In this document: one piece after another, positions 584 to 21,905 of the stretch
How the letters are laid out: the number at the start of each line of letters is the position of its first letter
How positions within the stretch are numbered: the first letter of the stretch is position 1
Source: Zestosphaera tikiterensis
GTDB taxonomy: Archaea; Thermoproteota; Thermoprotei_A; Sulfolobales; NBVN01
NCBI GenBank assembly: GCA_003056265.1
Contig: NBVN01000004.1
Coordinates: 261,587-325,586, forward strand
DNA: 64,000 bases
Direction: 5' to 3'
Made by a program: the position numbers and the translations under genes
The notes under the pieces: generated by a model
What the model saw: the letters and a program-made list of their open reading frames with translations, nothing else
Told to the model about the DNA's origin: nothing
The model's database searches: none

Positions 584-1467
584 CCATATCCTTAATTTCC
601 TTCTTTGCCGTGGTTTCCGCGTTCCTCCCACCTCTGCTTGACGGGGTTGAGAGGAAGGTAAGGGCTAAAATCCAGAGTAGGATCGGACCCCCTACGGTAA
701 TGCAGACTTGGTATGACTTAAGGAAGTTAGCGGTTAAGGAGCTTAAGATGCCTTTAGGTGGTGAGTTAGCCGTCTTAACCGTTTTCTTAAGTTTGATCAC
801 CTCAGTTTCCAGCATCGCATACCTTACGTATGTTTTAATCACCTCAACCCTCAACCCGTTAAGCATCGCTACATTGATAGTTTTAATTACCGCCTCACAT
901 AACCTAACGCTGCTTTCCTCCGTGTCGACTTCAAACCCCTTCTCTATAGTTGGGTCTTACAGGAACGTAACGCTGTTGTTAGTTAATGAGTTCGGCTTTA
1001 TGGCTGGTTTTATAGCGACGCTCTACGCCTTAGTTAGGTTGTCAACGAATCCAACGCCGTTAAGCTTTCTAGCCTACGCGTTAGGCCTCGCAGCTTTAAT
1101 CGTATCTACCTACGTAGGGTGTGGTAGGCTACCTTACGACATACATGAAGCAGAGCCTGAACTAGCTTCAGGAGCTTTAATCGAGTTTAGCGGGGTTGCT
1201 TTAGGGACGTACCTATACACGCATTTAATGATGCGTTACGTGTTTTCGCTGCTGGTTGCTTACGCTATTTCAACGCTTATCATAGGCTTTACAAACGCTT
1301 TAGTCGTTATCGCGGTTTTAGCTTTACTTACTTCAATTATCTACATACTCTACGGGGTTGTGGCTGCGATGTTGGGGAGGACTAGAGTCGATTTAGGTGT
1401 TCGAACGCTTTTTACGTTATACGTTAGCTTAACTCTCTGTTTGGTGGTAGCATGGTTGTTCGCTTAA
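565..1467 (+). CDS. membrane subunit of a group 4 [NiFe]-hydrogenase, NuoH/HycD/EchB-like
   Basis: The N-terminal motif ERKVRAKIQSRIGPP matches the NuoH/HycD signature (ERK..A..Q.R.GP). The protein is about 300 aa and multi-TM, and sits next to the catalytic subunits. Confidence 0.8.
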   Translation: MGLDFITISLISFFAVVSAFLPPLLDGVERKVRAKIQSRIGPPTVMQTWYDLRKLAVKELKMPLGGELAVLTVFLSLITSVSSIAYLTYVLITSTLNPLSIATLIVLITASHNLTLLSSVSTSNPFSIVGSYRNVTLLLVNEFGFMAGFIATLYALVRLSTNPTPLSFLAYALGLAALIVSTYVGCGRLPYDIHEAEPELASGALIEFSGVALGTYLYTHLMMRYVFSLLVAYAISTLIIGFTNALVVIAVLALLTSIIYILYGVVAAMLGRTRVDLGVRTLFTLYVSLTLCLVVAWLFA

Positions 1468-1516
1468 ATAAAACATTTATTAAGGTGTTTGTAGATTATT
1501 TTAACGGTGTTAAAGT

Positions 1517-3220
1517 ATGGTAAGCGACATCATAGAAACCTTAGCGAGTGTAGCTAGAGGTAGCAGAAGTAAGTCCATACTAACTAAAGTGGGTGAGGTA
1601 TGCGGTGATAAGCTACTGAAGGTTGAGCGCGTGAGTCCATCAACGATTAAAGTGTTGATTAAGGCTGACTGCCTTCATGAAGTGGCTGAGGTTCTCTCCG
1701 CAGAACGTGACGTATACTTTAGAACTATGGCCGCTTCCGACGAAAGACCTGCTGAAAACCTCTTTAAGCTATACTACGTGTTCGGAATAGATAGCGAAGG
1801 AACTAACATAGTAGTTGAAGTCCCGACGGACGGCGAGCGGGAAGTCCCCTCCATTTCCGATGTTGTTAAGGCTTGTGATTGGTATGAGCTTGAAGCTCAT
1901 GATTTAATGGGTGTTAAGTTTAGTGGTAGGTTTCTTAAAAGGCTTGTATTACCTGATGATTGGCCTGAAGAAATACACCCACTAAGAAAAGACATAACAA
2001 CAGAAGAAATAAAAAAACTATATCAACCACAAGTAGTTAAGAGAGCTGTGGAGTTAGGCGTTGAGGAGATTGTTAAGATTCCAATAGGTCCTTACCACCC
2101 AGCACTTCACGAACCGGAGTATTTCGAGCTATACGTTCGTGGGGAGAAGGTCGTTGACGCTAGATATGTTGGTTTTATGGTTCATAGAGGTATTGAGAAG
2201 TTAGCTGAATCTATGAAGTACGATCAAGTTCCTTTTCTTGCTGAGAGGATTTGCGGTATTTGTGGTTTTGTTCATTCTGTTTCATATACTCAAGCTGTTG
2301 AAGAAGCTTTAAACATTGAAGTACCTGAAAAAACACAATACATAAGAACAATAATACTAGAGCTGGAAAGAATACATAGCCACCTACTATGGATAGGTGT
2401 GGCTTTACACTTACTGGGTTATGACACGGGTTTCATGCACGCTTGGAGGATTAGGGAGAAGGTTATGGTTTTATCTGAGTTATTAACAGGTAGTAGGAAA
2501 ACATACGGAATAAACTTAGTAGGTGGGGTAAGAAAAGACATAAACAAAGAAAAAATAGAAAAAACAAAACAAACACTAAAGCAGGTGTTAAACGAATATA
2601 AGGAATTCGTAGATGTTGCCACAAGCGTACCTCAAGTTAGGAGGAGGTTATCGGGTACTGGTGTTTTACCTGGTGGTGAGGCTAGAGCTTATTCGTTGGT
2701 AGGGCCTACGGCTAGAGGTTCAGGACTTAGTAGGGATGTTAGGAAGGACTACACCTACGGCGCCTACCACTTCGTAAGTTTTTCAATACCAACGTATAGT
2801 GAAGGCGATAACCTAGCTAGAACGTTAGTAAGAATAGATGAGGTATACGAATCAATAAACATAATAGAACAACTACTCGACACAATACCATCGAGTAGCG
2901 AAATCAAAGTTGATTCATGGGAACCACAACCAATGAAGTTAGGACTAGGAAACGTTGAAGCACCAAGAGGTGAAGTAATACACGTGGTAATCACGGGTAA
3001 ATACGGTCCTTACAGATGGAGGGTTAGAGCACCAACATACCAGAACCTACAGGCAGTACCCACGATGTTAAGAGGTGTTGACTTAGCTGACGCACCAATA
3101 ACAATAGCAAGCATAGACCCATGCTTCTCATGCACAGACAGAGCAATAAAAATAAACATAAAAACAGGCAAGGTTGAATTCATACCTTTAGAGGTTTTGT
3201 CCAGAGGTGGTGTTAGATAG
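1517..3220 (+). CDS. [NiFe]-hydrogenase large subunit fused to an N-terminal NuoC-like domain (HycE/EchD-EchE-like, group 4)
   Basis: Both Ni-Fe ligand motifs are intact: RICGICGFVHS near the N-terminus of the catalytic domain and DPCFSCTDR at the C-terminus. The N-terminal 170 aa or so resembles NuoC/HycE-N. Confidence 0.9.
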   Translation: MVSDIIETLASVARGSRSKSILTKVGEVCGDKLLKVERVSPSTIKVLIKADCLHEVAEVLSAERDVYFRTMAASDERPAENLFKLYYVFGIDSEGTNIVVEVPTDGEREVPSISDVVKACDWYELEAHDLMGVKFSGRFLKRLVLPDDWPEEIHPLRKDITTEEIKKLYQPQVVKRAVELGVEEIVKIPIGPYHPALHEPEYFELYVRGEKVVDARYVGFMVHRGIEKLAESMKYDQVPFLAERICGICGFVHSVSYTQAVEEALNIEVPEKTQYIRTIILELERIHSHLLWIGVALHLLGYDTGFMHAWRIREKVMVLSELLTGSRKTYGINLVGGVRKDINKEKIEKTKQTLKQVLNEYKEFVDVATSVPQVRRRLSGTGVLPGGEARAYSLVGPTARGSGLSRDVRKDYTYGAYHFVSFSIPTYSEGDNLARTLVRIDEVYESINIIEQLLDTIPSSSEIKVDSWEPQPMKLGLGNVEAPRGEVIHVVITGKYGPYRWRVRAPTYQNLQAVPTMLRGVDLADAPITIASIDPCFSCTDRAIKINIKTGKVEFIPLEVLSRGGVR

Positions 3221-7138: not shown

Positions 7139-8776
7139 GTGCATGTTTTGAGTTTTAAAGTTAGGTTGAAGTCCCTCTTTAGAAGAAGTGAGGATAAGGG
7201 TTTAAAGGGGGGTTTAGAGGGTTCCTCTGAAGTTGCTGTTGTGATGCCTGAGGTTAGACCTGCTCACGAACTCTTAAGTGTTAAGAGAGGTTTTAAAGTT
7301 GTTGAGTCTTACCCGATTCACGAACCCTTCGCATATATAAACATCGTTGAGGAGGAAGCAACCGGCAAGCTGTTTTACGAGGTTTACGAGATTTCATTAA
7401 CTGAGGAGGAGAGGAGGATCTACGAGTCTTTAAAGGAGCACATCATATGGGAGTTGAAGCCCGTAGCTTCTTTAAACGTTGACGCAAGGAATGAAATCTT
7501 AAAAACAGCTAGGAATGTGATGAGGGAGTTTCAACTTCGCTTCACTAGAACTCCATCGCTTTCGTGGAGTAAGCTAGCTTACTACATAGAGAAGGATCTA
7601 CTCGGCTACGGAGTTCTTGAGCCTGTATTTAGGGATAGGCATATAGAAGACATCTCGTGTAATGGGCCTGGAAAGCCTGTCTACGTATGGCATAGGAAGT
7701 ACGAGTCCCTACCCACCAACATAGTGTTTAAAAACGAGTTGGAGCTCGATGAATACGTGCTTAAGTTAGCTCATATGGCAGGTAAACACATATCCGTTGC
7801 CTACCCAGTTCTCGACGCCATACTTCCGGGAGGGCATCGAGTAGCCGCGACATTCACTAAGGAAGTCTCCACCTCAGGCTCTACATTCACCATAAGGAAG
7901 TTCAGCGAGTCCCCAATAACCATAGCCGACATGATAAGCTACGGAACTATATCCTCAGACTTAGCGGCTTACTTCTGGTTGGCTATGGATTATAAGATGA
8001 CGGGCCTCATACTCGGCGTGACGGGCGCTGGTAAGACATCAACGTTAAACGCCTTAGCCACTTTATTAAGGCCCACATATAAAGTCGTAACTATTGAGGA
8101 CACGCCTGAGTTGAGGCTACCCCTCGAGAATTGGGTGCAGTTGGTTTCCAGGCCTTCATACCTAGCCGGAGGTGTTGGTGAGGTCTCCCTATACCACTTA
8201 GTTAGGGTGTCGCTTAGGTATAGACCGGACGTAATCGTAGTCGGTGAGGTTAGGGGTGAGGAGGCTTACGTACTATTTCAAGCTATAGCTACAGGGCATT
8301 CAGGACTCACTACCTTACACGCGGAGAGCATTGACGCAGCTGTGAAGAGGCTTACCTCAAAACCTATGGATATTCCGGAGTCCTACATACCTTTAATTAA
8401 CTTCGCCTTAGTGATTAAGAGAGTATCCCTCGTTGATGAGAGGGGTAGGGTCAGACCCGCTAGAAAAATAACTAACGTTTGGGAGATCAGAGACTTCGGG
8501 GAGTATGAGGAGGTTGCTAGGTGGGACCCCGCTAGGAATAGGTTCGAGCTTAAGTTAGGGAGGAGTTTAGTCCTTCAGAAGATTTCAGACTTGACTGGAA
8601 AGCCTGTCGAGGCTTTAATGGATGAGTTAGCTTTAAGGAAAGCAGTTCTTGAGTGGTTAGTGGCTTCTAAGAAGACTGCCTATAGGGATGTAGCGACTTA
8701 CATTCAGAAGTACTACCTAAACCCGAAGAAGACTTTAGAGGAGTTGGGTGTGGCTCATGCCTTCACTACGGCGTAG
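7139..8776 (+). CDS. type II/IV secretion-family ATPase (archaeal type IV pilus/archaellum assembly ATPase, FlaI/UpsE/AapE-like)
   Basis: Walker A GVTGAGKTSTLNAL, Walker B/Asp box VIVVGEVRGEE and His box TGHSGLTTLHA. Confidence 0.9.
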   Translation: MHVLSFKVRLKSLFRRSEDKGLKGGLEGSSEVAVVMPEVRPAHELLSVKRGFKVVESYPIHEPFAYINIVEEEATGKLFYEVYEISLTEEERRIYESLKEHIIWELKPVASLNVDARNEILKTARNVMREFQLRFTRTPSLSWSKLAYYIEKDLLGYGVLEPVFRDRHIEDISCNGPGKPVYVWHRKYESLPTNIVFKNELELDEYVLKLAHMAGKHISVAYPVLDAILPGGHRVAATFTKEVSTSGSTFTIRKFSESPITIADMISYGTISSDLAAYFWLAMDYKMTGLILGVTGAGKTSTLNALATLLRPTYKVVTIEDTPELRLPLENWVQLVSRPSYLAGGVGEVSLYHLVRVSLRYRPDVIVVGEVRGEEAYVLFQAIATGHSGLTTLHAESIDAAVKRLTSKPMDIPESYIPLINFALVIKRVSLVDERGRVRPARKITNVWEIRDFGEYEEVARWDPARNRFELKLGRSLVLQKISDLTGKPVEALMDELALRKAVLEWLVASKKTAYRDVATYIQKYYLNPKKTLEELGVAHAFTTA

Positions 8777-10589
8777 GAAGAAGGGTAAGGAACCTAAAGC
8801 TGGTGAAGTTAGGGAAGACCTTAAGAAGGTTGCGAAGCCTTGGGTTAAAGGACCTACGTTAGACGAGATCTTCACAGCTTTATCTCTAACGTTGTTTGAA
8901 TCCTTAGGTAGGTCTTTAGCTAAGACTTTCGAGTTGGATAAAGCATTACTTAAAGCTGGTTTAAACGTCCACCCAACTATATACGCGGCTAAGACTTTAA
9001 CGTTTACTGTTTTAGCCGCTATACTGTCGTTACTTCCAACAGCTGCGTTCATAGTTTTGATTCCAGCTAACATCATAGTTAAGGTTGTGTTGGTGGTTTT
9101 CGCGGCTGTAGTTCCTATCATGGTTTTTGCTTTAAGGCTTTCCTACCCGGCTTTAATAGCTTCAGATAGGAAGTCTGGGGTTGAGAACGAGCTCCCGTTC
9201 TTCATGGCTTACGCGTCAACCATGGTTAAAGCCGGTGTTAGCTTAGATAAGATTATTGAGAGGGTTGCCGAGCTTAAGGTGTTTAAAGCTTTAAGGGATG
9301 AGGCTAGGAGGGTAGTCACTAGGGTTAGGATGTTTGGCGACGACCCTGTCTCGGCGTTGGAGTACGTGGCTTCAAACCACCCAAGCACTAAGTTTAGGGA
9401 CGTTATGTTGGGTTACACAACGACTTTAAGGAGTGGTGGTGACGTAGTCCACTATATGGAGGTTAGGACTAGGGAGTTGTTTGAGGCTAGGATGGTTGAG
9501 ACTAGGTTAATTACTGAAAGGCTTGCTTCATTTCTAGAGCTTTACATAGTTTTAGGCGTGATTATGTCCGTAACGGTCTTCGTGTTCTTCGCTGTTTCCG
9601 GAACGCTTTCGGCGGTGTCCGCCGGGAGGACTACGGGTGTTGTTAGGGTTGATATAACTATGCCTTCACTATATAACTTCCTAGTCCTGCCTACCCTAGG
9701 GTTGGCGGTCTTACTAATGATTCACTACTCCCAACCTAAAACCCCCGTTAAGGTTATGGAGCCTTACTACACTTTAATACCTTTAATACCTGTTGCTGTG
9801 TTAGCTTTCTACATAACTTTAGCGATTACCGGAGGGTTAGGTGTGTTCAGAGGTGTTTTAGGTATTTCTGAGGTTAGGTCTTTAATAATAGCTAGTACCG
9901 TAGCTACATTACTTACTTCAGTGCCTCCATGGCTTGTCTATAGGGGAGTTATGAAAGGGCATAAGGGGTTGATTAGCTCTACAGCTGATTTCCTAAGGGA
10001 CTTAAGCGAGGTTAGGAAGACTGGATTAAGCCCTGAGAAATGTTTGATATCCCTATCTACGAGAGACTATAGGAACTTAACGCCTATAGTTAGTAAGGCT
10101 GGAGCTGCTTTATCGATAGGCTTAAGCCTTGAGGAATCCTTAAGGAGGGTTATTAAAGGCGTTAAAGAATGGTTCGTCATAGCTATCTTCAGATTCTTAA
10201 CGGACTCCATAGTGGTTGGCGGCGGATCCCCCGAAATAGTTGATGCTTTAGCTAGATTCACTCAAAGCTTAAGCGAGTTGGAGGAGGAGATGAGGAGGAG
10301 GTTAAAAGCTTACGTATTCCTACCGTACTTCGGCACGGTAATGCTCGCATCAACACCTATAATGATTATAAACTTACTAGCCACGGCAGGCGGCGCAAAC
10401 CCCGAAGCCTTAGCACCGTTAATAGCTGTGTTAGGCGCTGGCAGCATGATAAACGCATACATAATGGGTTTAGTTGCTGGGAAATCCGCCGAGATGAGCA
10501 TAGCTTCAGGTTTTAAACACGCTGTCGTAATGGTAGCTTTAACTACGGCAACCACGTTAATCACTATGTACTTCTATAAGTTAATTTAA
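8748..10589 (+). CDS. polytopic platform membrane protein (FlaJ/TadC/UpsF-like)
   Basis: A 613-aa multi-TM protein that overlaps and follows the ATPase gene. It has the two-repeat cytoplasmic-domain/TM architecture typical of FlaJ/TadC. Confidence 0.75.
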   Translation: MWLMPSLRRRKKGKEPKAGEVREDLKKVAKPWVKGPTLDEIFTALSLTLFESLGRSLAKTFELDKALLKAGLNVHPTIYAAKTLTFTVLAAILSLLPTAAFIVLIPANIIVKVVLVVFAAVVPIMVFALRLSYPALIASDRKSGVENELPFFMAYASTMVKAGVSLDKIIERVAELKVFKALRDEARRVVTRVRMFGDDPVSALEYVASNHPSTKFRDVMLGYTTTLRSGGDVVHYMEVRTRELFEARMVETRLITERLASFLELYIVLGVIMSVTVFVFFAVSGTLSAVSAGRTTGVVRVDITMPSLYNFLVLPTLGLAVLLMIHYSQPKTPVKVMEPYYTLIPLIPVAVLAFYITLAITGGLGVFRGVLGISEVRSLIIASTVATLLTSVPPWLVYRGVMKGHKGLISSTADFLRDLSEVRKTGLSPEKCLISLSTRDYRNLTPIVSKAGAALSIGLSLEESLRRVIKGVKEWFVIAIFRFLTDSIVVGGGSPEIVDALARFTQSLSELEEEMRRRLKAYVFLPYFGTVMLASTPIMIINLLATAGGANPEALAPLIAVLGAGSMINAYIMGLVAGKSAEMSIASGFKHAVVMVALTTATTLITMYFYKLI

Positions 10590-11440: not shown

Positions 11441-11677
11441 AACACTAACACTAATATATGCAGGTAAAACTTTAAAAACTTTAAACACACTAAATTTGAC
11501 TACGTCAAACTCTAGAGAAATCCCGTCACGAAGCCAATCTTTTACTATAATATCGAATATCGTGAGTAGTTCTACTAAGAGTTCCTTAAAGACGTCTAGA
11601 ACTTTCTTTAAACTAACTCTTAAGTAAGCCTTAGCTTCCCCTCTTTCGCTGGAGTTAATGCCTACTCTTACATGTGA
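11441..11677 (-). pseudogene. open frame of 79 codons with no start codon; possible gene remnant at the left edge of the island
   Basis: My own translation of the minus strand gives SHVRVGINSSERGEAKAYLRVSLKKVLDVFKELLVELLTIFDIIVKDWLRDGISLEFDVVKFSVFKVFKVLPAYISVSV. There is no ATG/GTG/TTG until near the end. An open frame this long is unlikely by chance in AT-rich DNA. Confidence 0.3.
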
Positions 11678-11747
11678 TTAGATTTTCTAGTTTGATAAGC
11701 CTATCTTAGAAAGTCTAGTTGGGTTAGGTTTTCTAATTCCTCTGTGA

Positions 11748-11761
11748 GTGTAAATTTACAC
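11748..11761. repeat. perfect 14-bp palindrome GTGTAAATTTACAC (copy 1)
   Basis: Read directly from the sequence. An identical copy lies at 17957-17970, a 16-bp variant AGAGTAAATTTACTCT at 17818-17833, and a half-site in the left arm at about 13536-13543. Confidence 0.9.
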
Positions 11762-11834
11762 TTAAGTATGGATTAACTACACCACAAGAAAGTAATAACA
11801 TGTTGTTACGGGTAGGAGTGGGAGAAAAAGAACC

Positions 11835-12767
11835 TTATCTACCGAATCTGCCGAGGATGTTGGTGTGTATGTTACTCTCAATGTTGTAGAGCTCGAACCT
11901 GAACTCTGTATTGCTGAACTCTATTACCGAGTATATCTTAACCACCAAGTGAGTGGTCTCATTGTTCTTTATGTGCGATACCCACCAGTCGCTTAGCTTG
12001 GCTATATCTATCTTTGTTGCGAATGGGAGCACGGTGTCGGCTTTAGCCTTCAGTATTACTGGGTTATATGTAGTTCCCTCGCCTATCTTTATGTTGTTGA
12101 CATAGATCTCGTAATCAATCCTAGTCACAGGTATAGGCACCGCCTGGTGGTTGTATATTGTAGCCCTATGGTTAACCTCTATTACGCTAGGGGATACAGA
12201 ACCCCATATAGACTCTAGGCTCTTCAAAGTCAGCTTGACAGGTCCAACGCTCATGTCTCTCGGCTCATTAGTGTTAAGTCCAGCCAACAGGTTCGTCTCA
12301 AGCTTTGACGAGAACTCGAATGGATAGGCGAATTCCACGGCCTTCAGGTCGAATAATATATTACCAGTTATCTTTACAGTGCTTACCTCATGCTGGTTAA
12401 TGTGTGATGCCAGTCCCTCAGGTATCTTCCTGCTATTGATCAGGCTCTTCAGGACTATAGCTGACTCTGTTTTTGCTGGGAGGCTTATATTAGTGCTTGA
12501 CCCAGATACTATTTTTATATCGTTCAAGTACATGTCGAAAGCTACGCTTTTCACCGGGATAGAGAATGGATTTGGATTATACACCACAATACTTGTTACC
12601 ACTTCCGTGGTGTCGCTAGTGACTGTCCCCCATGAACTAGCAATACTTTTAACCTCAGGCTTCATAGCCTCGCTCGGGGGCTTAGCACCATAATAAAAGT
12701 AGTAGCCTACTCCTAGGGCTACAACAATTAACACGAGGATTAAGAGGACTAACACGCCCTTACTCAT
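11835..12767 (-). CDS. membrane-anchored protein with tandem LEA_2/WHy (LEA14-like) domains
   Basis: An N-terminal TM helix is followed by two repeats of the pattern VxVxNPNPFxIPVxxxxYxxYxNxxxIxxG (VVYNPNPFSIPVKSVAFDMYLNDIKIVSG and TIYNHQAVPIPVTRIDYEIYVNNIKIGEG). Confidence 0.7.
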   Translation of the reverse strand: MSKGVLVLLILVLIVVALGVGYYFYYGAKPPSEAMKPEVKSIASSWGTVTSDTTEVVTSIVVYNPNPFSIPVKSVAFDMYLNDIKIVSGSSTNISLPAKTESAIVLKSLINSRKIPEGLASHINQHEVSTVKITGNILFDLKAVEFAYPFEFSSKLETNLLAGLNTNEPRDMSVGPVKLTLKSLESIWGSVSPSVIEVNHRATIYNHQAVPIPVTRIDYEIYVNNIKIGEGTTYNPVILKAKADTVLPFATKIDIAKLSDWWVSHIKNNETTHLVVKIYSVIEFSNTEFRFELYNIESNIHTNILGRFGR

Positions 12768-12982
12768 GTTTTATCCTCCAATAATCTATAGGAGTTCCCA
12801 TATATTTTGTCAACCAACTGAACAGGATATAAGGGACTCCTGCTGTAAATAGGTTAATAAGATAGGGCAAACCTCCTACTACCCTTAGTAAATTAGCTTT
12901 CCTAAAGGGTTATCGAGTTCTGTGAGCACTTTTAAGCTTTGATACCTGAATGTCGGGTAAAACAGAACTTCAAGTTAGCTTC

Positions 12983-12998
12983 GATAAGCTTATCAAAG
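12983..12998. repeat. 16-bp direct repeat GATAAGCTTATCAAAG (copy 1; copy 2 at 13547-13562)
   Basis: Read directly. The two identical copies lie 564 bp apart and bracket the left arm. Each contains the palindrome GATAAGCTTATC. Confidence 0.9.
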
Positions 12999-13043
12999 AA
13001 GTGAAGGTGTCTCCATTTATAGCATTATCCATTTGAGAGAACT

Positions 13044-13562
13044 ACTCAGAGTAATACTCAGAGTAATGAGATTTCCTACGTAGAGCAATTAAAAAGTATT
13101 CACCTAAGACAATTAGAAAATGAAGAATTTTCAGGCCTCATGGAGATTGGGAATTCGTCAAATAAAAAAATTACGGAATGGGATAATGGGAAATTTAGGT
13201 GGGATAATGGGAAGGTGAATGAAATTCACGCATCGATTATCCCGCTGTTGATTATCCCATTATCCCGGGATATCCCGGGAAGACCACGCGTAGCTTCCCA
13301 TTATCCCATTATCCCACTCTCAAAAACAATATGGGATCCCTAGCGGGATAAACGGGAAAACTGGGAAACCCCGATCAAACAGCATGAGTTTTACATACTA
13401 CTTCATCCTACTAGAAACTAACCCTAGAAACTAGGATCCTCTTCAAACATCCTCCCTAATCCTCCCTAACACACTCTTCAACCAACCCTAACGTAAACCT
13501 AGAACGTTTAATCGGGGCTTGCTCTTTAACTGCGGATTTACACTCTGATAAGCTTATCAAAG
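13044..13562. repeat. left arm of a diverged inverted repeat of about 0.5 kb (non-coding, iteron-rich)
   Basis: By-eye alignment shows it is colinear with the reverse complement of 17945-18431. Shared blocks run from ACTCAGAGTAATACTCAGAGTA at the outer end to ATTTACAC..GAT.AGCT at the inner end. A core of about 100 bp is roughly 85-90% identical. Confidence 0.85.
13179..13370. repeat. iteron array, motif GGGATAA/TTATCCC (at least 8 exact copies on both strands), centred on the palindrome CCCGGGATATCCCGGG (13264-13279)
   Basis: Forward copies start at 13180, 13201 and 13345. Reverse copies start at 13237, 13252, 13260, 13301 and 13309. Degenerate copies also occur. Confidence 0.85.
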
Positions 13563-13579
13563 CTAAGTTTTCTAAGGAC

Positions 13580-13797: not shown

Positions 13798-13992
13798 TTG
13801 GGGGATGCCTTGGGTTGTGTTGATTTAAGTAGGTGTGTTAAGGTTAAGATATTAAAGTTAAGGAAGAAGCAGAAGGGGGTTGACGTTAGAATACCTAAGG
13901 AAGTCGTGGAGAAGATGAATTTAAAAGGCAAGGAGAAGGTTGAGGTATACGTAGATTATGAAAACGGACTCATAATATATAAACCGTTTTAA
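13798..13992 (+). CDS. AbrB/SpoVT/MazE-type swapped-hairpin DNA-binding protein
   Basis: VRIPKEVVEKMNLKGKEKVEVYVDYENGLIIYKP matches the SpoVT-AbrB domain pattern (v.IPkev.e.lgl..Gd.v.v....g.i.i.p). Confidence 0.7.
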   Translation: MGDALGCVDLSRCVKVKILKLRKKQKGVDVRIPKEVVEKMNLKGKEKVEVYVDYENGLIIYKPF

Positions 13993-13993
13993 G

Positions 13994-14200
13994 GTGGGAA
14001 ACATGGTTAAATGCCCTTACTGTGGCTACGAATCAAACATAAACGACTTTAAACTTCTTAGAAATCCATGGAGATATAGGTTCTACGAGGTTAGGAGGCT
14101 TGAATGCCCTAAATGCCGTAAAGTATTCAACTACTACTACGAAGTAACATCTGAAGGTAAGGAAGTTAAGTTCATGATTAGAGTAAAGCCTAGAGGGTGA
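13994..14200 (+). CDS. small zinc-ribbon protein
   Basis: Two CxxC pairs (CPYC ... CPKC). The start lies 1 nt after the AbrB-like stop, which suggests translational coupling. Confidence 0.6.
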   Translation: MGNMVKCPYCGYESNINDFKLLRNPWRYRFYEVRRLECPKCRKVFNYYYEVTSEGKEVKFMIRVKPRG

Positions 14201-14296
14201 TGAAGCGTCCGAGTTTGTGATTGGGATGAGGTTTGGGGCTGTGAGTATGTTAAAGGTGATGATGAACAGATAAGAAAGGCTTTGAAGGTGTGAAAG

Positions 14297-15841
14297 TTGA
14301 GTAAGGTAGGTCTGGAATTTACTCAAATAAGCTTTGCTTCAGAGGTAAAGGATTGGATAAATGAAATCATTAAAAACGAAAGATTAAGGTTTGAATACGC
14401 TGATATTGAAATAAAGGACCCACGTCGGAAAAGGGCTGATGTAATCCTATGGGAGAAGAGGAGAGAGAAGAAACCAGCACTTTTAATTGAGATATGGGAT
14501 CCAAGCACCCCTCCTTGGGAGGATGCGTTAGATTCCGCCTTAGCTAAAGCATGGAAAAACAATATCCCTTATTTTGTTGTATGGAATTTAACGCACTTCT
14601 ACTGTTGGGATACTTTTAAAGAGGGTGAAGTGATAGATAAGCTTTGGTGGCCTCATGCAGGCGTAAGCGAAGTAGTAACTAAGGCTTTAACGTATGAAGA
14701 CGCTATTTTAAAGTATAGTGAAGGGATTAAAAACTACATTAGAAATTTCCTTAAGGAGTTTGAAGAGGTTTATTACGGTATTAAGGCTAAGCCTTTACTT
14801 GGGATTGATGAAAGATTCATCTATAGGTTAAGAGGCACGATTCACGCACTATCGATACCTGTTTTTGAGGAGTTAAAGAAGAGAACGCAGGAAGACATCC
14901 GGTTTAAGAAGGAGCTTATCAAATACTTTAAGGAACAAGGATGGACGTTTAAAGGAACGGACGAGGATTTCGAAAGAGTAGCAAGGCAATACATCTACTT
15001 ACTTACCAACAAATTACTTTTCTACAACGTTCTCCGTACAATCCCCTCATATAGAGAACTACCTAAGATCGAGATCCCCAAGGATGTCACAACCGGTGAA
15101 AAGCTAAGGGATATACTAAATTCTTACTTTGAACGTGCCTTTAAGACAACCGGAAATTACGAGACAATCCTACTTACAGATTTCTTAGACTCCATAATCC
15201 CGCCGGATGGTGTGGTTGAAGGTCTTAAGGAATTTATCCGTAAGATAAGCGATTACGACTTTTCAAAGATTACATATGAAATCTTAGGAAACATATTTCA
15301 AAGGCTAATACCGGAGGAGGAAAGGCATAAACTCGGTCAGTACTTCACGAGGTCTGATGTAGTTGACCTCATAGTAGGTTTCTGTGTAAGAAATGCCGAC
15401 GATAAAGTGTTGGATGGTAGTTGTGGTGCGGGGACGTTTCTAGTGCGGTCTTACGTGAGGAAAAAGCTACTTAACCCTAGTAAAAAGCATAAGGAGCTTA
15501 TTAAGGAACTATTCGGGATTGACATCGCGAAGTTCCCAGCTCATCTCTCAATCATAAACTTGGCTAGTAGAAACCTATCAGAGGTTGAGAACTACCCTAA
15601 CATCATTCATAAGGATTTCTTCGACGTAAGCCCAAGTGGGAAATATCCCTTAACTGATGTAAAGCATAATGAAGTAAAGCATAAAGTTGAAACTTTAGGT
15701 AAGAAAGAGTTCTTTATTGAAATACCAGAGTCTTTTGATGCTGTAGTGATGAATCCACCATACACTAGGCAGGAGGAATTGGAGGACATACTTGAGGAAG
15801 AAAGAGCAAAGCGTATGATGTATGCATTAAGGATTGGATAG
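14297..15841 (+). pseudogene. type IIG restriction-modification enzyme, fragment 1 of 3 (N-terminal nuclease-like region plus the N6-adenine methyltransferase core)
   Basis: Methyltransferase motifs GQYFTRSDVVDLIV, motif I VLDGSCGAGTFLV and motif IV VVMNPPYTRQEE. The reading frame breaks near 15796-15810, and the protein continues in frame 1. Confidence 0.8.
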
Positions 15842-15954
15842 ACCTTAGAAGCGATAAATACAGGAAAAACAACCCTCCAAAGCTTAGCAAGAGGTCAAGT
15901 ATCTACGTTTACTTCTTCATCCACGGAGCTAGGTTCTTAAAAGAAGGCGGTAGG

Positions 15955-16737
15955 TTGGGGTTGATTACTTCAAACTCTTGGCTGGACGTTGATTATGGCG
16001 GAGACTTGCAAAGATTCTTTCTTGAAAACTTCAAGATAATCGCTGTTATTGAAAGTAAGGTAGAGAGGTGGTTTGAAGACGCCGATATCAACACAGCGAT
16101 AACGATACTTGAGAGATGTAGCAATTCAGAAGAAAGAAATAACAACTTAGTCAAATTCGTCCAGCTTAAGAAACCTCTATCTGAATTCATACCTCCAACA
16201 AACGATGAAAACGAAAGGTGGAGAAACGTTGATAAATTAGTTAACTTCATAGAATCTAAAAACCAATACTTCGAAGATGAAAACATAAGGATATTTGTAA
16301 AGAAGCAGGAGGAGCTATGGGAAGAAGGTTACGATGAAGAGAAAAAAGAATACGTTGGAACAAAGTGGGGCAAATATATTAGGGCTCCAGAAATTTTTTA
16401 CAAGGTCTTGACTACCAAAAAAGATAAATTTGTGCCTCTTAAGAAACTAGCAAGAATCGGTCGAGGTTTAAGGACAGGTTTCAATTCCTTCTTTTACTTA
16501 AGTGCTCAGAAAGCTGAAAAACTCGGAATTATGAACTTTACACGTCCACTAATTAAATCTCCAAAGGATAGTGAGTACACTCTGTTAAGTAAAGCTAAAT
16601 TGCGAAATAGAATTTTTACAGTAAATGAGGAATTAAATTCTCTTATAAGGACAAAAGCTTATGACTATATAAAAATGGGCGAGAGAAAAGGGGTGCCTCA
16701 AAGACGAGGTAAAAAAAGAAAAATGGTGGTCCTTTGA
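15955..16737 (+). pseudogene. type IIG restriction-modification enzyme, fragment 2 of 3
   Basis: Frame 1 is already open from 15796 (..DLRSDKYRKNNPPKLSKRSSIYVYFFIHGARFLKEGGRLGLITSNSWLDVDYG), which is the expected continuation after NPPY. The fragment ends at a frameshift in the A7 run at 16711-16717. Confidence 0.8.
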
Positions 16738-16777
16738 GGAGGAATGTATAAGGGCTGATTTATTTATTCCAATCCAA

Positions 16778-17707
16778 TTGTGGGAAACATATAAAATATT
16801 TCTTAATGATACAAAAGAACACATACTGTTTGATCAGCAATTGAGCGGTCTTAAATTTAAGGATTTTAAGACAGCAAAGCTTGTTTGTGCAGTATTAACC
16901 TCTACCCTAGGCAACTTATTCTTGGAGATTGTAGGAAGAAGTCAGCTTGGTCAGGGGTCATTACAACTAGCGACTATAGATCTCCATAGCCTTCCTTGCT
17001 TGATTATAGCAGAGGAAAAGATAATAGAAAAAATTTTCAAGGTTTTTGAAAAACTATGTGAAAGAAAGATTTTAACTATCTATGAAGAGATCGGTGCAAG
17101 TTCGCCAGAAGGAGTTTCCCTAAATAAAGTAAAGCCTGATAGAAGGGAATTAGATAAAATCATAATGGGTGAAATCTTAGGCTTAACTGAGGAAGAGCAG
17201 TTAGAGGTTTATAGAGCAGTTGTGGATCTTGTTAGGTCGAGGCTTGAAAGAGCTAAAAGCGTTCAAAAGAAGAAGGTTAAGGAGCTGAATGTTGACGATC
17301 TTGTGGATTCTGTTTTAAAAGAATTAGAGGAAGTTCACGGTATAAAGGCTAAAGAATTCCCGGAAGAGTACATAGGGAGGTGTGAGTATAAAGTTGTTGA
17401 AGTTCCAAAGGGGTCTGAAGTTGAGGTTGGTTATGATTTAAGAGGTCCGTACGTTCGAATAGATAATGAAAAGGTTAGATGTTCTTCAATTTACGAAGCA
17501 AGGTTCATAGGATATGCTGTTTTAGCTGGTAAGACCAAGATAATGGTACCTAAAGATGAAAACATATTGAAAAAAGCTGTAGAAGAAAGAAGGAAGTTCC
17601 TAGAGGAAGCAAGGATGAAGATAGAGGAATTTATTAATGAAACGATAACGGATAAAAAGCTAAGAGAGGATGTAAAGTTTAAAGCATTTAAGAAGCTAGG
17701 CATGTAA
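16778..17707 (+). pseudogene. type IIG restriction-modification enzyme, fragment 3 of 3 (C-terminal target-recognition region)
   Basis: Frame 2 is open from 16673 and reads ..KKEKWWSFEEECIRADLFIPIQLWETYKIF.., continuing fragment 2 across the A-run. Confidence 0.75.
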
Positions 17708-17817: not shown

Positions 17818-17833
17818 AGAGTAAATTTACTCT
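17818..17833. repeat. 16-bp palindrome AGAGTAAATTTACTCT (variant of the GTGTAAATTTACAC family)
   Basis: Read directly from the sequence. Confidence 0.85.
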
Positions 17834-17944
17834 TAAAACACATTCCAACCTACACTAAAACCTCAGAAAAGCTAATTAAAATAAAAAACTAGATTTTCAG
17901 AGTTTATCAAGAACTGAAAATTCACTCAACCAGCTTTCTTAGTT

Positions 17945-18431
17945 AAGCTCATCAAAGTGTAAATTTACACTCAAGAACAAGCCCCGACTAAACACTCCAG
18001 GTCTGCATTAGGGTTAGTTGGGGAGGATGTTAGGGAGGATTAGGGAGGATGTTTGAGGAGGATCTAGTTTTCGAGATTAGCTTTCTAGCAGGATGAAGCA
18101 GTATGTAAAACTCATGCTGTTTGATCGGTTTTGTCCCGGTGTGTCCCACCGTCCACGCGTCTGTCCCAAGCTGTTTTAGAAAGTGGGACAGTGGGACAAT
18201 GGGACACCACGCGTGGTGTCCCGGGACAATGGGACAATCGCCGCGTGAATTTCTTTCGCTGTCCCATTGTCCCAATCAAATGTCTCATTTGTCCCAAACT
18301 AAAAGATTTTCAATTCACGAATTCGCGGTTTCCATGAGGTTCGAACGGCTTTCAGCATTTAATTGCCTTTGCCGAATGCTTTTTAATTGTCCAATGTTCA
18401 TATATATTGTACTCTGAGTATTACTCTGAGT
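17945..18431. repeat. right arm of the diverged inverted repeat (reverse orientation relative to 13044-13562)
   Basis: See the left arm. It contains the palindrome GTGTAAATTTACAC (17957-17970), the shared core (about 18021-18128) and the outer-end sequence GTACTCTGAGTATTACTCTGAGT (18409-18431). Confidence 0.85.
18132..18296. repeat. iteron array, motif GGGACA(A)/(T)TGTCCC (12 copies on both strands), centred on the 22-bp palindrome GGGACACCACGCGTGGTGTCCC (18201-18222)
   Basis: Copies start at 18132, 18142, 18172, 18185, 18193, 18201, 18217, 18223, 18231, 18260, 18268 and 18290. No GGGATAA copy occurs in this array. Confidence 0.85.
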
Positions 18432-18474
18432 GTGCGGTTTAATCATGCTTATTAATTCAGATATGTTAAGGTAG

Positions 18475-18789
18475 TTGGTGTTAAGAGTGAGAGGCGAGGG
18501 AAAGACAACCATCGAGGTATCGCTTGAGACTAGGGAACTGCTTAGGAGGGTCTCCCAGAGGGTTGGGATGACTTACGACGAGGTTCTTAAGATGCTCCTA
18601 GAATCATTCGAAAATCTGCTGAATTGCAGAGTTAGGGTTGATGAGGTCGTAGGCGACGTTATCTTGGTGTGCGACGTCGGTGAGGAGGAGCCTGAGGAGA
18701 TAAGCATAGACAGGAGGGAGTATAGAAGGCTTAGGAAGGTTTTGAAGTTCCTACTGAAGCCTAAGGAATCGCTCCACCCTACCTACTAG
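18475..18789 (+). CDS. putative ribbon-helix-helix (CopG/Arc-like) DNA-binding protein
   Basis: The N-terminus TIEVSLETRELLRRVSQRVGMTYDEVLKMLLE fits a strand-helix-helix pattern. Composition is host-like. Confidence 0.5.
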   Translation: MVLRVRGEGKTTIEVSLETRELLRRVSQRVGMTYDEVLKMLLESFENLLNCRVRVDEVVGDVILVCDVGEEEPEEISIDRREYRRLRKVLKFLLKPKESLHPTY

Positions 18790-19202
18790 AAAACTGGATG
18801 GGTTGAAAGTTTTACTTTCTAAGCAGCAGGTGGGATTCGTGCTGTTTGGTTGTGTCTTTTAAAGTGTTTTTCAATTATCTGTGGGCGGATACGCTAGGGT
18901 TGATCTTGATGATCGGATAATGTTACCAATGAAGATTAAGTTATGCGTGGCTTGTTTTGTTTTCCTATATTGCCTATAGCGGTTTTGTGGGGGTATTTTC
19001 TTAACGATAGATGGTGTTGTCTTACGGATTTATTAACTTTTCCTTACTTTACTTGCCCTAGTTGAAGATGAGGAGGTTTTAGTTTTTCAAACTTGATTTA
19101 TGGTAGGTTTAAGTCTTAAAGGAGGTGATGGGTTACTTACGTTATTACGTTATGGAGTGTTTATTAGCTTTATTTAAAGATAATATTATGGTAGTGGCGT
19201 AA

Positions 19203-19796
19203 GTGATGGTGTTCATGTATAACATACGTGGGGGGCAGGCGAACTTATTTGTGGTAGTTATGTTGGTAGGTCTTGTTTTAGTTCTTGGTGTAAGTCTTGC
19301 GGGTTATTTCTCTACCTACGTAGCTAGCGTTAGTTCTGAAAGCAGTCTTAAAAACGCAATACAGTATGAGATAGCTAATACGGTCGTATATAAGGAGTTC
19401 GATAGCGGTACGGCTGTATGGTTGGGTTTGATAAGGATAGATGGGTCTAGCACTACATACTACATGCTCGTTATAAACACCTCCTCCTGCGTATGGCAGA
19501 GGATCTCCGAAGAGAATATCGTGAGCAACCTACTAAGCAACGGTTTAGAGGGTGTTAGGGCTGGAAGATCCGTAGATTTAAACAGCGTGTATATATTAGA
19601 TCCAGACGGAAACCACATCCCCATAAAGACATACTATAGGGGGTCATCACCTATAACGATATATGAAATCTTCGTTGAAGCGGGCGGTAAGCCTAAACTC
19701 ATAGGACCGATACCGCATGGGGGAGGGTGTGTTGAGGTCGTGTTTTTAACCCTCGCAAACAATAACTATTATGAGGTAGGTAAGGTTTATGTATAG
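19203..19796 (+). CDS. pilin-like protein with a class III (type IV prepilin-like) signal peptide
   Basis: The N-terminus ..NIRGGQANLFVVVMLVGLVLVLGV has a basic residue plus Gly, followed by a hydrophobic helix. An ATG at 19218 is a plausible start. Confidence 0.6.
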   Translation: MMVFMYNIRGGQANLFVVVMLVGLVLVLGVSLAGYFSTYVASVSSESSLKNAIQYEIANTVVYKEFDSGTAVWLGLIRIDGSSTTYYMLVINTSSCVWQRISEENIVSNLLSNGLEGVRAGRSVDLNSVYILDPDGNHIPIKTYYRGSSPITIYEIFVEAGGKPKLIGPIPHGGGCVEVVFLTLANNNYYEVGKVYV

Positions 19797-20970
19797 AGTA
19801 AAACCTTCAAGAGGTCAGGCGGAGATAATAGGTGCTACCATAGCTTTAGGGTTGCTAGTCCTAGCTATAGCGTCTATGTTAGCGATAATGCAGAGAACAT
19901 CAGCAACATCAACAACAAACTTCGCAAAAAGAGTAAACTTCGAGAATGAAAGACTTTCAGAGAAGCTAAGCGTTACATACAACTCAACAAGTGGGGAATG
20001 CATCCTAAGAAACTACGGCTCACTAGACACGGTAATCATAAGAATATGGAACAACAACCAACACTACGACAGTAAATACGGCGATCACAACCTTCCAATA
20101 GTTTTAAAACCTAACGAAGAAGAAAGATTTACCTTCAGCGAAACACCACAATACATAGTTACGTCAAGAGGAAACGTAATACCGTTTAAAAACATGTGTG
20201 AAGAATTAAAACAACGTCTAACAACCCCCCCATCTGTTGGCGAAAGCTTTATAAAGTCTGAGGATGTATTGACGGGAGAAGCGAATTTTAAACCAACAAA
20301 AGATAGAGCCATAGTATGCTCTATTGAGATTGGTAATACAAGACCCACGTGTTATGTAGCATATAACTTCACTAATTACGGTAAAATATGGCGTCGATAC
20401 AATCCTGTTAACGGTTGGGAAAGTAACATTAACGCTAGACTTACTTCCGACACCGACCGTGATGGTGTTAACGAACTAACGCTTGTAGACGATGCTTGGA
20501 ATGAGATCAATTTTACAAGAGGTCAGAGCCCTACTATAAGGGTAACGTTCGTTAATTCTACGATTATAGATGACGATACAGACGTTATCTACGTTACGTA
20601 TAGACTTGCCGTTAATGCTATAGTAAGTAACGCTGCTGCACCGTTCGGGTTTAGTTTAAGTAGTTTTGTAGAATTAACGACAACCAATACTGGTGCGACA
20701 TTCCCAGCTGCGGTTAGCTTTATCTCTATACCTAGGTCTGAAAAAGTAGGGGGTTCTTATAACGTAATTGCTATCCTTGAAGCAAGTGTTGCCATACCGA
20801 GGAAGGCATATTCGTCGTTAAGTGGTTTATTACAGCCCGGGATCTATAATTTAACCATAACAGTTTTGATTAATAATCCACAACAAGGTTCTGCGGATTT
20901 TGCTAAGGCTGTACGTCTTGAGAGTGTAACGATAACGGGTGCTGAAATAAAATGGTATGAAAAGATATAG
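19789..20970 (+). CDS. large pilin-like / pilus-associated protein with a class III signal peptide
   Basis: MYRVKPSRGQAEIIGATIALGLLVLAI is a typical PibD-type processing site (RG|QAE). The gene overlaps the upstream pilin-like gene. Confidence 0.6.
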   Translation: MYRVKPSRGQAEIIGATIALGLLVLAIASMLAIMQRTSATSTTNFAKRVNFENERLSEKLSVTYNSTSGECILRNYGSLDTVIIRIWNNNQHYDSKYGDHNLPIVLKPNEEERFTFSETPQYIVTSRGNVIPFKNMCEELKQRLTTPPSVGESFIKSEDVLTGEANFKPTKDRAIVCSIEIGNTRPTCYVAYNFTNYGKIWRRYNPVNGWESNINARLTSDTDRDGVNELTLVDDAWNEINFTRGQSPTIRVTFVNSTIIDDDTDVIYVTYRLAVNAIVSNAAAPFGFSLSSFVELTTTNTGATFPAAVSFISIPRSEKVGGSYNVIAILEASVAIPRKAYSSLSGLLQPGIYNLTITVLINNPQQGSADFAKAVRLESVTITGAEIKWYEKI

Positions 20971-21437
20971 CTTAGAACTAGTAGTTTTCACATTCATCTT
21001 TAAATTAAATGGCTTAAATGTTGTTAGGTTTTTAGTAGCGTTTGTTTTAACGCCTTCAGCGGTTTAATATCGTATATTTCCTTCAATAATCTTAATATTA
21101 AAGCTTTGTTAAGCACTACCTATATTTAATGACTTGTTAATAATACGTAAATTCTTACTAAAAACATCCTCAGCTAATAATTACTTAATTTTCACGATTT
21201 CCCCTAGGTTTAAACATGCTTTATTTGAAGTTTTACGTAGTGTATGTAGTGAGTTTATGTTATTTGCTGTGAATGCATTAAGTAAGAAAGCAAGGTAGTT
21301 AAGAATATGGGAACACAGTCCTCGTAAGGTGATGTAAGTTCTTAAAGTTAAAGCTATGTGATCATGAAGTTTTAAGTTTATTAACAGTAGTGTTTATAAA
21401 GGAGTGCGATACATTATATTATTGGAGGTAATTAAAT

Positions 21438-21905
21438 ATGGATACACGTAAAGCAATATCACCTATACTTGCTACAGTAATCCTAATAGCTGTAACTCTA
21501 GTAATAGCGATAGGAGTTATAGGCTGGATAATGGGCATATGGGGCTCTCTAGGAGGACCTTCAGAAAGCCTAGTAGTTACAGGCGGAGGAACAGCAACAG
21601 GTACTACTAACAGTCTAACTTTTACTGTGACAATAGTTAATAAAGGTTCAGGTTCAGCAAAGTTATCGAGAATTGAAGTATCTGGTATAGGTTCAGTAGG
21701 TTCAAACGAGAACGTCAAAGATGATGGCACGCAGAAGCAATTGCAACAGGTAGAAATTAAACCAGGCGAATCTCATACTGTGGAAGTAACTCTTGGTAAT
21801 TTAGGAAGTTTTACATGCGTTGTTGGCGCTACTTATAACGTTAACGTATATACTCAGGCAGGTAATGTATATAGTACTGTAATACGTGTTACTAGTTGCT
21901 CGTAA
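21438..21905 (+). CDS. archaeal type IV pilin (DUF1628 / archaeal pilin N-terminal domain)
   Basis: MDTRKAISPILATVILIAVTLVIAIGV is the canonical archaeal pilin/flagellin-like N-terminus. Confidence 0.75.
   Translation: MDTRKAISPILATVILIAVTLVIAIGVIGWIMGIWGSLGGPSESLVVTGGGTATGTTNSLTFTVTIVNKGSGSAKLSRIEVSGIGSVGSNENVKDDGTQKQLQQVEIKPGESHTVEVTLGNLGSFTCVVGATYNVNVYTQAGNVYSTVIRVTSCS

Follow-up and report, generated by a model that had tools for sequence, protein, structure and literature searches.

A 64,000-nucleotide stretch of the Zestosphaera tikiterensis genome (contig NBVN01000004.1, positions 261,587 to 325,586; hereafter the window) harbours two inverted non-coding arms of ~500 bp, which flank a defence-gene island and each carry an array of short repeats on both strands. 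Comparison with homologous arms revealed that both are copies of a mosaic module and that the arrays of nine such arms fall into four motif classes. As judged by these sequence comparisons, the window arms did not arise by duplication and divergence; they are two modules of pre-existing classes lying head to head around one island. The arrays may represent clustered sites for a class-specific DNA-binding protein encoded elsewhere, set in a mosaic regulatory module which borders variable, often defence-gene, islands, a reading that we favour while giving it somewhat less than an even chance.

Exact search of the window identified 19 GGGACA/TGTCCC sites, 12 of them inside 18132-18295, that is, within the right-arm array (Table 1). 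Of the start positions listed in the preliminary description of this DNA, eleven were recovered, while the unit placed at 18172 was found to start at 18162. The perfect 22-bp palindrome GGGACACCACGCGTGGTGTCCC reported at 18201-18222, with its ACGCGT centre, is present, as are the TGGGACAATGGGACA tandems with a period of 8 bp; exact searches also bore out that GGGATAA is absent from the right arm and GGGACA from the left. The units are 6-8 bp long (14-16 bp as pairs), recur with a period of 8-10 bp and are of mixed orientation (- - - + + + - + + - - (-) - in the right array). The TGGGACAA units are spaced 8 bp apart, and 12 units occupy 165 bp on both strands, so that the array consists of contiguous 7-8-bp subsites. 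The arrays are rich in perfect 14-15-bp inverted repeats. Since minus-strand units outnumber plus-strand units, some (e.g., 18290) can have no inverted partner in their own array; these unpartnered units nevertheless show the class motif.

A homologous arm was found directly upstream of a homologue of the gene which follows the right arm, encoding a small ribbon-helix-helix (RHH)-like protein, in seven independent hot-spring metagenome contigs (L028, L029, L030, L031, L033, L051 and L052). Together with the two window arms, these make up the sample of nine. Contigs L028-L033 came from exact-protein look-ups of the RHH-like homologues and L052-L054 from a profile search; L051 was found through a spurious minus-strand open reading frame (ORF) that gene callers predict across the array, which served as a search handle only. 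L032 is the same sequence as L031 and was counted once. In addition, a Logan contig matches window positions 11548-13399 exactly. Exact-pattern scans of public collections with conserved arm sequence yielded no more than 26 chance matches in genome contigs and none in metagenome contigs, scanned twice; in viral contigs there were no matches in one scan and 17 chance matches without arm homology in another.

The nine arms form four classes, GGGACA, GGGATA/GGGAA, GGAACA and GAAACA, and each array is nearly uniform. The GGGACA class comprises the right window arm (12 units) and L028 (nine, plus one GGAACA). The GGGATA/GGGAA class includes the left window arm (ten GGGATA, with GGGAA), L052 (12 GGGATA), L031 (six GGGATA, with GGGAA) and L033 (three GGGATA in a partial array). 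GGAACA is found in L029 (six units, plus two GAAACA) and L051 (11), and GAAACA in L030 (13). A random mixture of variants was seen in none of the nine arrays, and the earlier contention that the difference between the arms is array-wide rather than the outcome of drift is thereby upheld. In the nine-arm alignment the substitutions fall at homologous positions with conserved spacers between them, and the differences between classes are confined to motif positions 2, 3 and 5; spacing, orientation and the remaining three positions (1, 4 and 6) are constant. Four arms of the GGGATA class, with array spacer identities of 76-92%, show GGGATA and GGGAA(R) in alternation at homologous positions. This fixed alternation favours recognition, in the form of a composite site, over blind homogenisation or deamination.

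Formal alignment of 12980-13560 with the reverse complement of 17920-18480 confirmed the proposed homology of the window arms: approximately 13044-13562 aligns, inverted, with 17942-18431 at a mean column identity of 82% (the figure given by the alignment tool). Identity is highest in the 5' part of the arms, at 84-85%, against 67-68% for the array and 68-69% for the 3' part. Motif base 5 at the 12 homologous positions is C throughout the right arm, and T (six) or A (four), i.e. 10 of 12, in the left. The suggestion that the arms are two related yet distinct elements is thus borne out. The single duplication followed by an arm-wide change, which the preliminary description implied, is not: the left array shares 90% identity with the same-class arrays of L052 and L033 and 84% with that of L031, but only 67% with the right array, which is itself 86% identical to that of L028. 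The 26-nt insertion of the left arm is also common to L052. Because the left array is closer to same-class arrays elsewhere than to its counterpart in the window, two modules of pre-existing classes must have been brought together. Nor does the picture of a plain chromosomal inverted repeat hold, each arm being a copy of a mosaic module which is normally found between a variable island and an RHH-like gene.

The change of class is best seen in L028 (GGGACA) and L029 (GGAACA). The array spacers of these two arms are 90% identical, yet seven units were changed by the same G-to-A substitution; given such spacers, the change was truly concerted. For comparison, the spacer identity is 85% between L028 and the right window arm and 75% between L029 and L051, which have the GGAACA motif in common. 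Going by these alignments, motif class can switch within one spacer lineage and one motif can stand on two spacer backgrounds. Within classes the motif bases are constrained: identity amounts to 54/54 (100%) in the motif versus 268/330 (81%) in the rest of the arm in one comparison (p=7e-5), and to 89/93 (96%) versus 276/355 (78%) in a second (p=2e-5). The constraint holds also for the left window arm and L052, both without an intact neighbouring gene.

The module is mosaic as well. The arms group by class on array identity, not on the 3' region or the gene, and L029 and L051 are 76-82% identical in the array and 64-65% in the 3' part. In the pilin/serine hydroxymethyltransferase context, the right window arm carries GGGACA, L031 and L033 GGGATA, and L029 GGAACA; in a second context, defined by a common downstream flank, L028 carries GGGACA, L052 GGGATA and L030 GAAACA. 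Hence, the same chromosomal locus bears different classes in different contigs.

In the reading that we favour, an arm would be one copy of a non-coding module, mosaic in make-up and regulatory or architectural in role, that occurs in Zestosphaera-like Desulfurococcales and usually separates a variable island, often of defence genes, from a small, autoregulated RHH-like gene. Its 6-8-bp units (consensus T-G-R-R-A-Y/W-A-A-T), often in 14-16-bp tandem pairs and in both orientations around palindromes, would be clustered binding sites coated cooperatively by a small sequence-specific protein encoded elsewhere. The RHH proteins MetJ, omega and ParG bind arrays similar to these contiguous 8-bp units of mixed orientation. 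On this view the four motif classes would define groups of different specificity, much as incompatibility groups do in plasmids and immunity groups in phages. As a guess, the complex might control the adjacent promoter or insulate the border of the island.

Several observations weigh against this reading. The co-varying DNA-binding protein which the preliminary description proposed to look for nearby was not found, nor was any other binder, among the neighbouring genes comparable across arms. The 359-amino acid upstream ORFs of L028 and L030, each full-length, are near-identical despite the different motifs. The AbrB-like gene of the window stands beside the left arm, which makes L052 its class match; it is 69% identical to that of L029 and has no BLASTP match to that of L052, though L052 is of the left-arm class. 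The type IIG enzymes beside the two GGGACA arrays (window and L028) share 28% identity, in the methylase core only. Furthermore, where two classes share a genome, either there would have to be two binders or a single one would have to be tolerant, and a tolerant binder would leave the uniformity of the arrays unexplained. Three of the classes differ by transitions only and form a stepwise series, such as a mutational process could also yield. Finally, the sample is small, with nine arms, one lineage and three metagenomes.

Uniform arrays might also result from homogenisation, in which variants spread among the 14-16-bp units, direct and inverted, by template switching or short-patch gene conversion while the binder tolerates any G-R-R-A-Y-A, so that the classes carry no specificity meaning. 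The minor variants do match other classes, as seeds or intermediates would (the single GGAACA of L028; the two GAAACA of L029, at the gene-proximal end), the adjacent proteins show no co-variation with the motif, and the abundant perfect inverted repeats offer possible templates for switching. Very short conversion tracts have reportedly been observed in Sulfolobus by the Grogan laboratory. However, units with unique flanks and no length-matched partner (18132, 18162 and 18290) still bear the class motif, spacers only a few bases from the units stay unhomogenised, and GGAACA occurs on two different spacer backgrounds. Since homogenisation should, moreover, erase the two fixed-position sub-motifs of the GGGATA class, which are stable across arms with the above range of spacer identities, we consider it unlikely.

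Another candidate for the binder is the RHH-like protein itself, which could coat the array as omega, ParG and MetJ do, reading the invariant TG..A.AAT and making the array an extended operator or a centromere-like site. The protein is encoded next to seven of the nine arms, in six of them by an intact gene, contiguous 8-bp units are the typical spacing of RHH-bound arrays, distant homologues too have upstream repeat arrays (ATTCAATTTGA-like in contig L053), and the protein has a predicted beta-alpha-alpha topology. The beta-strand RGRGRTTVEVSLE, however, is identical beside GGGACA, GGGATA and GGAACA arrays. In the case of L051, the very different beta-strand TTVGIRKE goes with the same GGAACA units as in L029, and it is the proximal operator that changes instead, to ATACAGCATACTATTCTGTAT; in L054 the beta-strand and the operator (ACTCAGAGTA twice) are both kept and the array is absent. 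The arrays are independent of the adjacent gene, being intact where it is deleted (left window arm) or truncated (L052), and recombination has shuffled them relative to it. No ParA-type partner was found among the neighbouring ORFs scanned or in the JGI precomputed Pfam lists for related contigs. With one beta-strand beside three classes, the evidence of L051 and L054, and arrays without the gene, it is unlikely that the RHH-like protein reads the array units, and we rate its coating of the array as quite improbable. Meanwhile, the 12-bp tandem upstream of the gene changes or stays with the beta-strand (L051, L054) and was therefore assigned to the RHH-like protein as its putative operator.

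The arrays might instead be rewritten in concert by an active process, either targeted deamination or templated short-patch conversion, with a mobile regulatory module at the borders of archaeal defence islands then able to switch its recognition class in a few steps. In the series TGTCCC to TGTTCC to TGTTTC, the C converted is always the one after T. We attach a low probability to such rewriting; if true, it would constitute a natural means of retuning many binding sites at once.

It seems very unlikely that the arms are transcribed and that the arrays act as a structured RNA, or as a single-stranded DNA hairpin or cruciform element (e.g., of an origin or transfer site), with compensatory motif changes. 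Both arrays fold far below shuffled controls, at -94.8 kcal/mol (z = -7.7) and -93.6 kcal/mol (z = -6.0), and plus- and minus-strand units change together, so that every stem is kept in every class. Stems, however, need only matching partners and not one motif, and unpaired units follow the class too. The hairpin box outside the motifs shows non-compensated changes in L028 and L030. Rfam gave no matches at gathering thresholds in the whole window and none in the array regions even at E<=1, and no replication or relaxase gene was seen among the scanned ORFs beside any arm.

The least credible of the alternatives is that the array is a methylation-sensing or decoy cluster of methyltransferase or restriction sites, with deamination, either enzyme-targeted or linked to methylation, behind the concerted C-to-T/G-to-A changes: type IIG and bacteriophage exclusion (BREX) enzymes typically recognise asymmetric 6-bp sites, an adenine methyltransferase is encoded in all three large islands sampled (type IIG in the window and L028, HmaB-like in L052), and GGGACA, GGAACA and GAAACA are linked by transitions only, each adjoining the previously changed base, but the type IIG enzymes at the two GGGACA arrays have nothing in common outside the methylase core, L028 and L030 combine near-identical upstream genes with different motifs, the methylases present are of the N6-adenine and not the cytosine type, and position 5 changes from C in the GGGACA class to A in about half of the homologous GGGATA-class units, a transversion which deamination cannot produce. 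Nor are the four motifs depleted elsewhere in the window (7 GGGACA versus 7.2 expected; 31 GGGATA versus 29.7), and restriction avoidance of the motifs was accordingly rejected.

Among known systems, the arrays are closest in layout to those bound by RHH proteins (the omega heptads of inc18 plasmids, the ParG boxes of TP228 and the met-boxes of MetJ), which likewise have contiguous 7-8-bp units, direct and inverted, upstream of a promoter, a small RHH-like gene next door and cooperative coating as the expected mode. They differ in that the DNA-reading strand of the adjacent protein is here unlinked to the unit sequence and tracks the separate 12-bp tandem operator; in addition, the arrays stand on an archaeal chromosome, with several motif classes per locus and without a ParA-type gene among the scanned neighbours. 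In evolutionary behaviour the closest systems are plasmid iterons with their incompatibility groups, the discriminator hexamers of P1/P7 parS and the immunity regions of lambdoid phages. In the former two, the same few bases differ in every repeat and define specificity groups, and different groups are able to coexist in one cell; iterons, however, are 17-22-bp direct repeats phased at about two helical turns as opposed to 6-8-bp units of mixed orientation, no Rep or ParB gene was found beside any arm, and no origin features were found. The lambdoid immunity regions resemble the present case in having differing operator sets at homologous positions of otherwise similar, recombining genomes, as well as in the mosaic module and the two inverted operator clusters around a gene block. 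Unlike in lambdoid phages, the window clusters are of different classes, so that one repressor could not bridge both, there is no co-varying repressor gene between or beside them, and a cluster has about 12 units rather than three.

Inverted arms of several hundred bp with short repeats flanking cargo are also typical of the subterminal repeats of transposon ends (Tn7, Mu, hAT/CACTA). There is, however, no transposase between the arms, the two ends have different motifs, no target-site duplication was seen at the borders, and homology to other arms runs past the supposed ends. With regard to an archaeal chromosomal origin, no Orc1/Cdc6 or WhiP was found among the scanned ORFs, no formal origin recognition box scan being made, and the array units show no resemblance to the ucm oligonucleotide ATTATACAAAC (PMC12141716). 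As each of the closest systems in layout and evolutionary behaviour fails in at least one defining feature tested (unit form, adjacent cognate gene or co-variation), the arrays belong to none of them, and are of the general kind of clustered class-specific binding repeats.

If the arrays are class-specific binding platforms, a hyperthermophilic archaeon offers a naturally occurring allelic series for protein-DNA specificity: four classes separated by single transitions or transversions, one of which was caught soon after a switch. Such a series would lend itself directly to the study of how numerous sites and the protein that binds them can change in step while function is maintained. The four motif classes among related modules suggest a DNA-recognition system, so far uncharacterised, whose sites can all be retuned together. 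In addition, the module marks the border of variable islands with restriction-modification, BREX-like and Hma-like genes and may inform the organisation, regulation and exchange of archaeal defence islands. The family of the RHH-like protein is tiny, with 14 cluster representatives at E<=1e-3 among 1.84 billion proteins, which places the module outside existing annotation.

The coordinates of the module, its elements and the enclosed island are listed in Table 1.

Table 1. Features of the two arms and of the DNA around them (window coordinates).
Feature	Position	Strand	Remarks
Right arm, complete non-coding module	17936..18431	+	border palindromes, G-rich repeats, hairpin box, array, conserved 3' region, operator
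Left arm, same module inverted	12972..13569	-	GATAAGCTTATC palindrome at both ends; operator and TATA-like box kept, RHH-like gene gone
Right-arm array	18132..18295		12 GGGACA/TGTCCC units and a degenerate TGTCTC at ~18280
GGGACA/TGTCCC unit starts, right arm	18132, 18142, 18162, 18185, 18193, 18201, 18217, 18223, 18231, 18260, 18268, 18290		exact search
Left-arm array, inverted copy	13179..13368		10 GGGATA and several GGGAA(A/G) at positions homologous to the right array; 26-nt insertion relative to the right
Imperfect palindrome GGAAGACCACGCGTAGCTTCCC	13278-13299		in left-arm array
Border element	17936..17971	+	degenerate P1 palindrome TTAAGCTCATCAAAG, then perfect P2 palindrome AGTGTAAATTTACACT
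Related copies of border palindromes	11693-11762, 12977-13005, 13536-13569, 17818-17833		
G-rich TTAGGGAGGA-type repeats	18008..18063	+	left-arm copy at 13444-13480, opposite strand
Conserved hairpin box AAGCAGTATGTAAAACTCATGCTGTTTGATC	18096..18126	+	10-bp imperfect hairpin; 27-29-nt core identical in both arms
Hairpin box core, left copy	13373-13399		
Putative operator, tandem 12-bp units TACTCTGAGTAT TACTCTGAGT	18410..18431	+	left arm 13043-13067
TATA-like TTATTAAT	~18449-18456		before RHH-like gene
RHH-like protein gene	18475..18789	+	104 amino acids; predicted beta-alpha-alpha, then beta3-alpha C-terminal domain
Island between arms	13798..17707	+	AbrB/MazE-like gene 13798-13992, Zn-ribbon gene 13994-14200, type IIG restriction-methyltransferase in three ORFs
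Type IIG ORFs	14297-15841, 15955-16737, 16778-17707		514, 260 and 309 amino acids

Read from the island side, an arm consists of the palindrome pair TTTGATAAGCTTATCAAA and AGTGTAAATTTACACT, the G-rich repeats, the hairpin box, the array, an AT-richer stretch, the operator and the TATA-like box. The array contains two ACGCGT-centred palindromes and a conserved GTGAAT..ATTCAC centre, and the conserved AT-richer stretch ACGAATTC....TTTCCATGAGG lies between it and the 12-bp tandem units. As a whole, the arms are more GC-rich than the surrounding DNA. In the left module the border palindrome comes straight after the TATA-like box and is followed by a short segment which in L028, L030 and L052 is found downstream of the gene. 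The TTAGGGAGGA repeats are conserved in the arms of every motif class that reach that far and are probably a second, class-independent binding element; they are telomere-repeat-like, G4-capable (able to form G-quadruplexes) and contain GGAGG. A G-quadruplex role for the (GGGACAAT)n units of the array was rejected, as the G-runs are reduced to GG and then to G in other classes. A coding array was likewise dismissed: TGGGAYAATGGG reads W-D-N-G in one frame with T/C synonymous, but other classes have stop codons in that frame and the repeats lie on both strands.

The TTTGATAAGCTTATCAAA and AGTGTAAATTTACACT palindromes recur between the cassettes of the window (LEA_2 gene at 11835-12767, left module, island and right module) like punctuation marks, and in L051 the module has border palindromes on both sides (908-936 and 2770-2798). 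A role in recombination or as binding sites is conceivable for them. A miniature inverted-repeat transposable element with clean terminal inverted repeats was considered, since GATAAGCTTATC brackets both the left and the L051 modules, and rejected because arm homology continues for about 25 nt beyond it and there is no target duplication. A diverged second copy of the hairpin box is present at 18821-18848, downstream of the RHH-like gene, so that copies of the box flank the array-plus-gene unit. The non-coding stretch 18966-19041 shows 92% identity to L029 and L033, above that of the RHH-like gene.

The 104-amino acid RHH-like protein is 99% identical to a hypothetical protein of Zestosphaera tikiterensis. 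Its AlphaFold model predicts beta(10-12)-alpha(17-30)-alpha(34-49) with a predicted local distance difference test (pLDDT) score of 81; no Pfam match, no PDB sequence match and no significant Foldseek match was obtained, and a scan of viral contigs with the protein as seed revealed no relatives. The L053 array mentioned above (positions 600-830) is unrelated in sequence and lies upstream of the distant homologue P0014, and L051 has a separate run of TTCATAA repeats at 720-790, beyond the module; it seems that repeat arrays generally accompany the genes of this family. In L051, a 243-amino acid protein with an RHH-like N-terminus and a Cys/His-rich C-terminus is encoded after the RHH-like gene, inside the palindrome-bounded module (959-1690, minus strand). 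With neither a Pfam match nor a window homologue, it is a candidate trans-acting factor.

The islands differ in content: type IIG restriction-modification in the window, type IIG and a BrxL fragment in L028, an HmaB-like methylase and an AAA protein in L052, and non-defence genes in L029 and L051. AbrB-like and/or Zn-ribbon genes start several of them (window, L052, L028 and L029). The first two type IIG ORFs of the window match successive parts of one 935-amino acid PADLOC profile, and the split restriction-methyltransferase is probably a pseudogene or a frameshift-controlled gene. In L051 a Phage_integr_3 integrase lies beside tRNA-Thr, 4.5 kb from the arm, and the L052 island begins with the C-terminus of an SSV-type (Sulfolobus spindle-shaped virus) integrase that is 88% identical to it. 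A search of L051 for an att repeat derived from the tRNA found none, and the window has no tRNA gene, integrase or transposase.

Pfam and PADLOC searches near the window arms returned only AbrB/MazE, Zn-ribbon, type IIG restriction-modification and LEA_2, with no initiator among the scanned ORFs. The wider window is ordinary archaeal chromosome, encoding a membrane-bound hydrogenase, a type IV pilus ATPase and platform protein, serine hydroxymethyltransferase, Alba, TATA-binding protein (TBP) and ABC transporters. The type IV pilus ATPase/platform genes (7139-10589) and the class III signal-peptide pilin-like genes (19203-21905) are separated by a 7-kb variable region which holds both arms, and the 197- and 393-amino acid pilin-like genes are missing from L031 and L033. 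The palindrome TGTACA is the most avoided hexamer of the window minus the arms (0 observed versus ~17 expected under a second-order model); such avoidance points to a restriction system, active now or until recently, that recognises this site.

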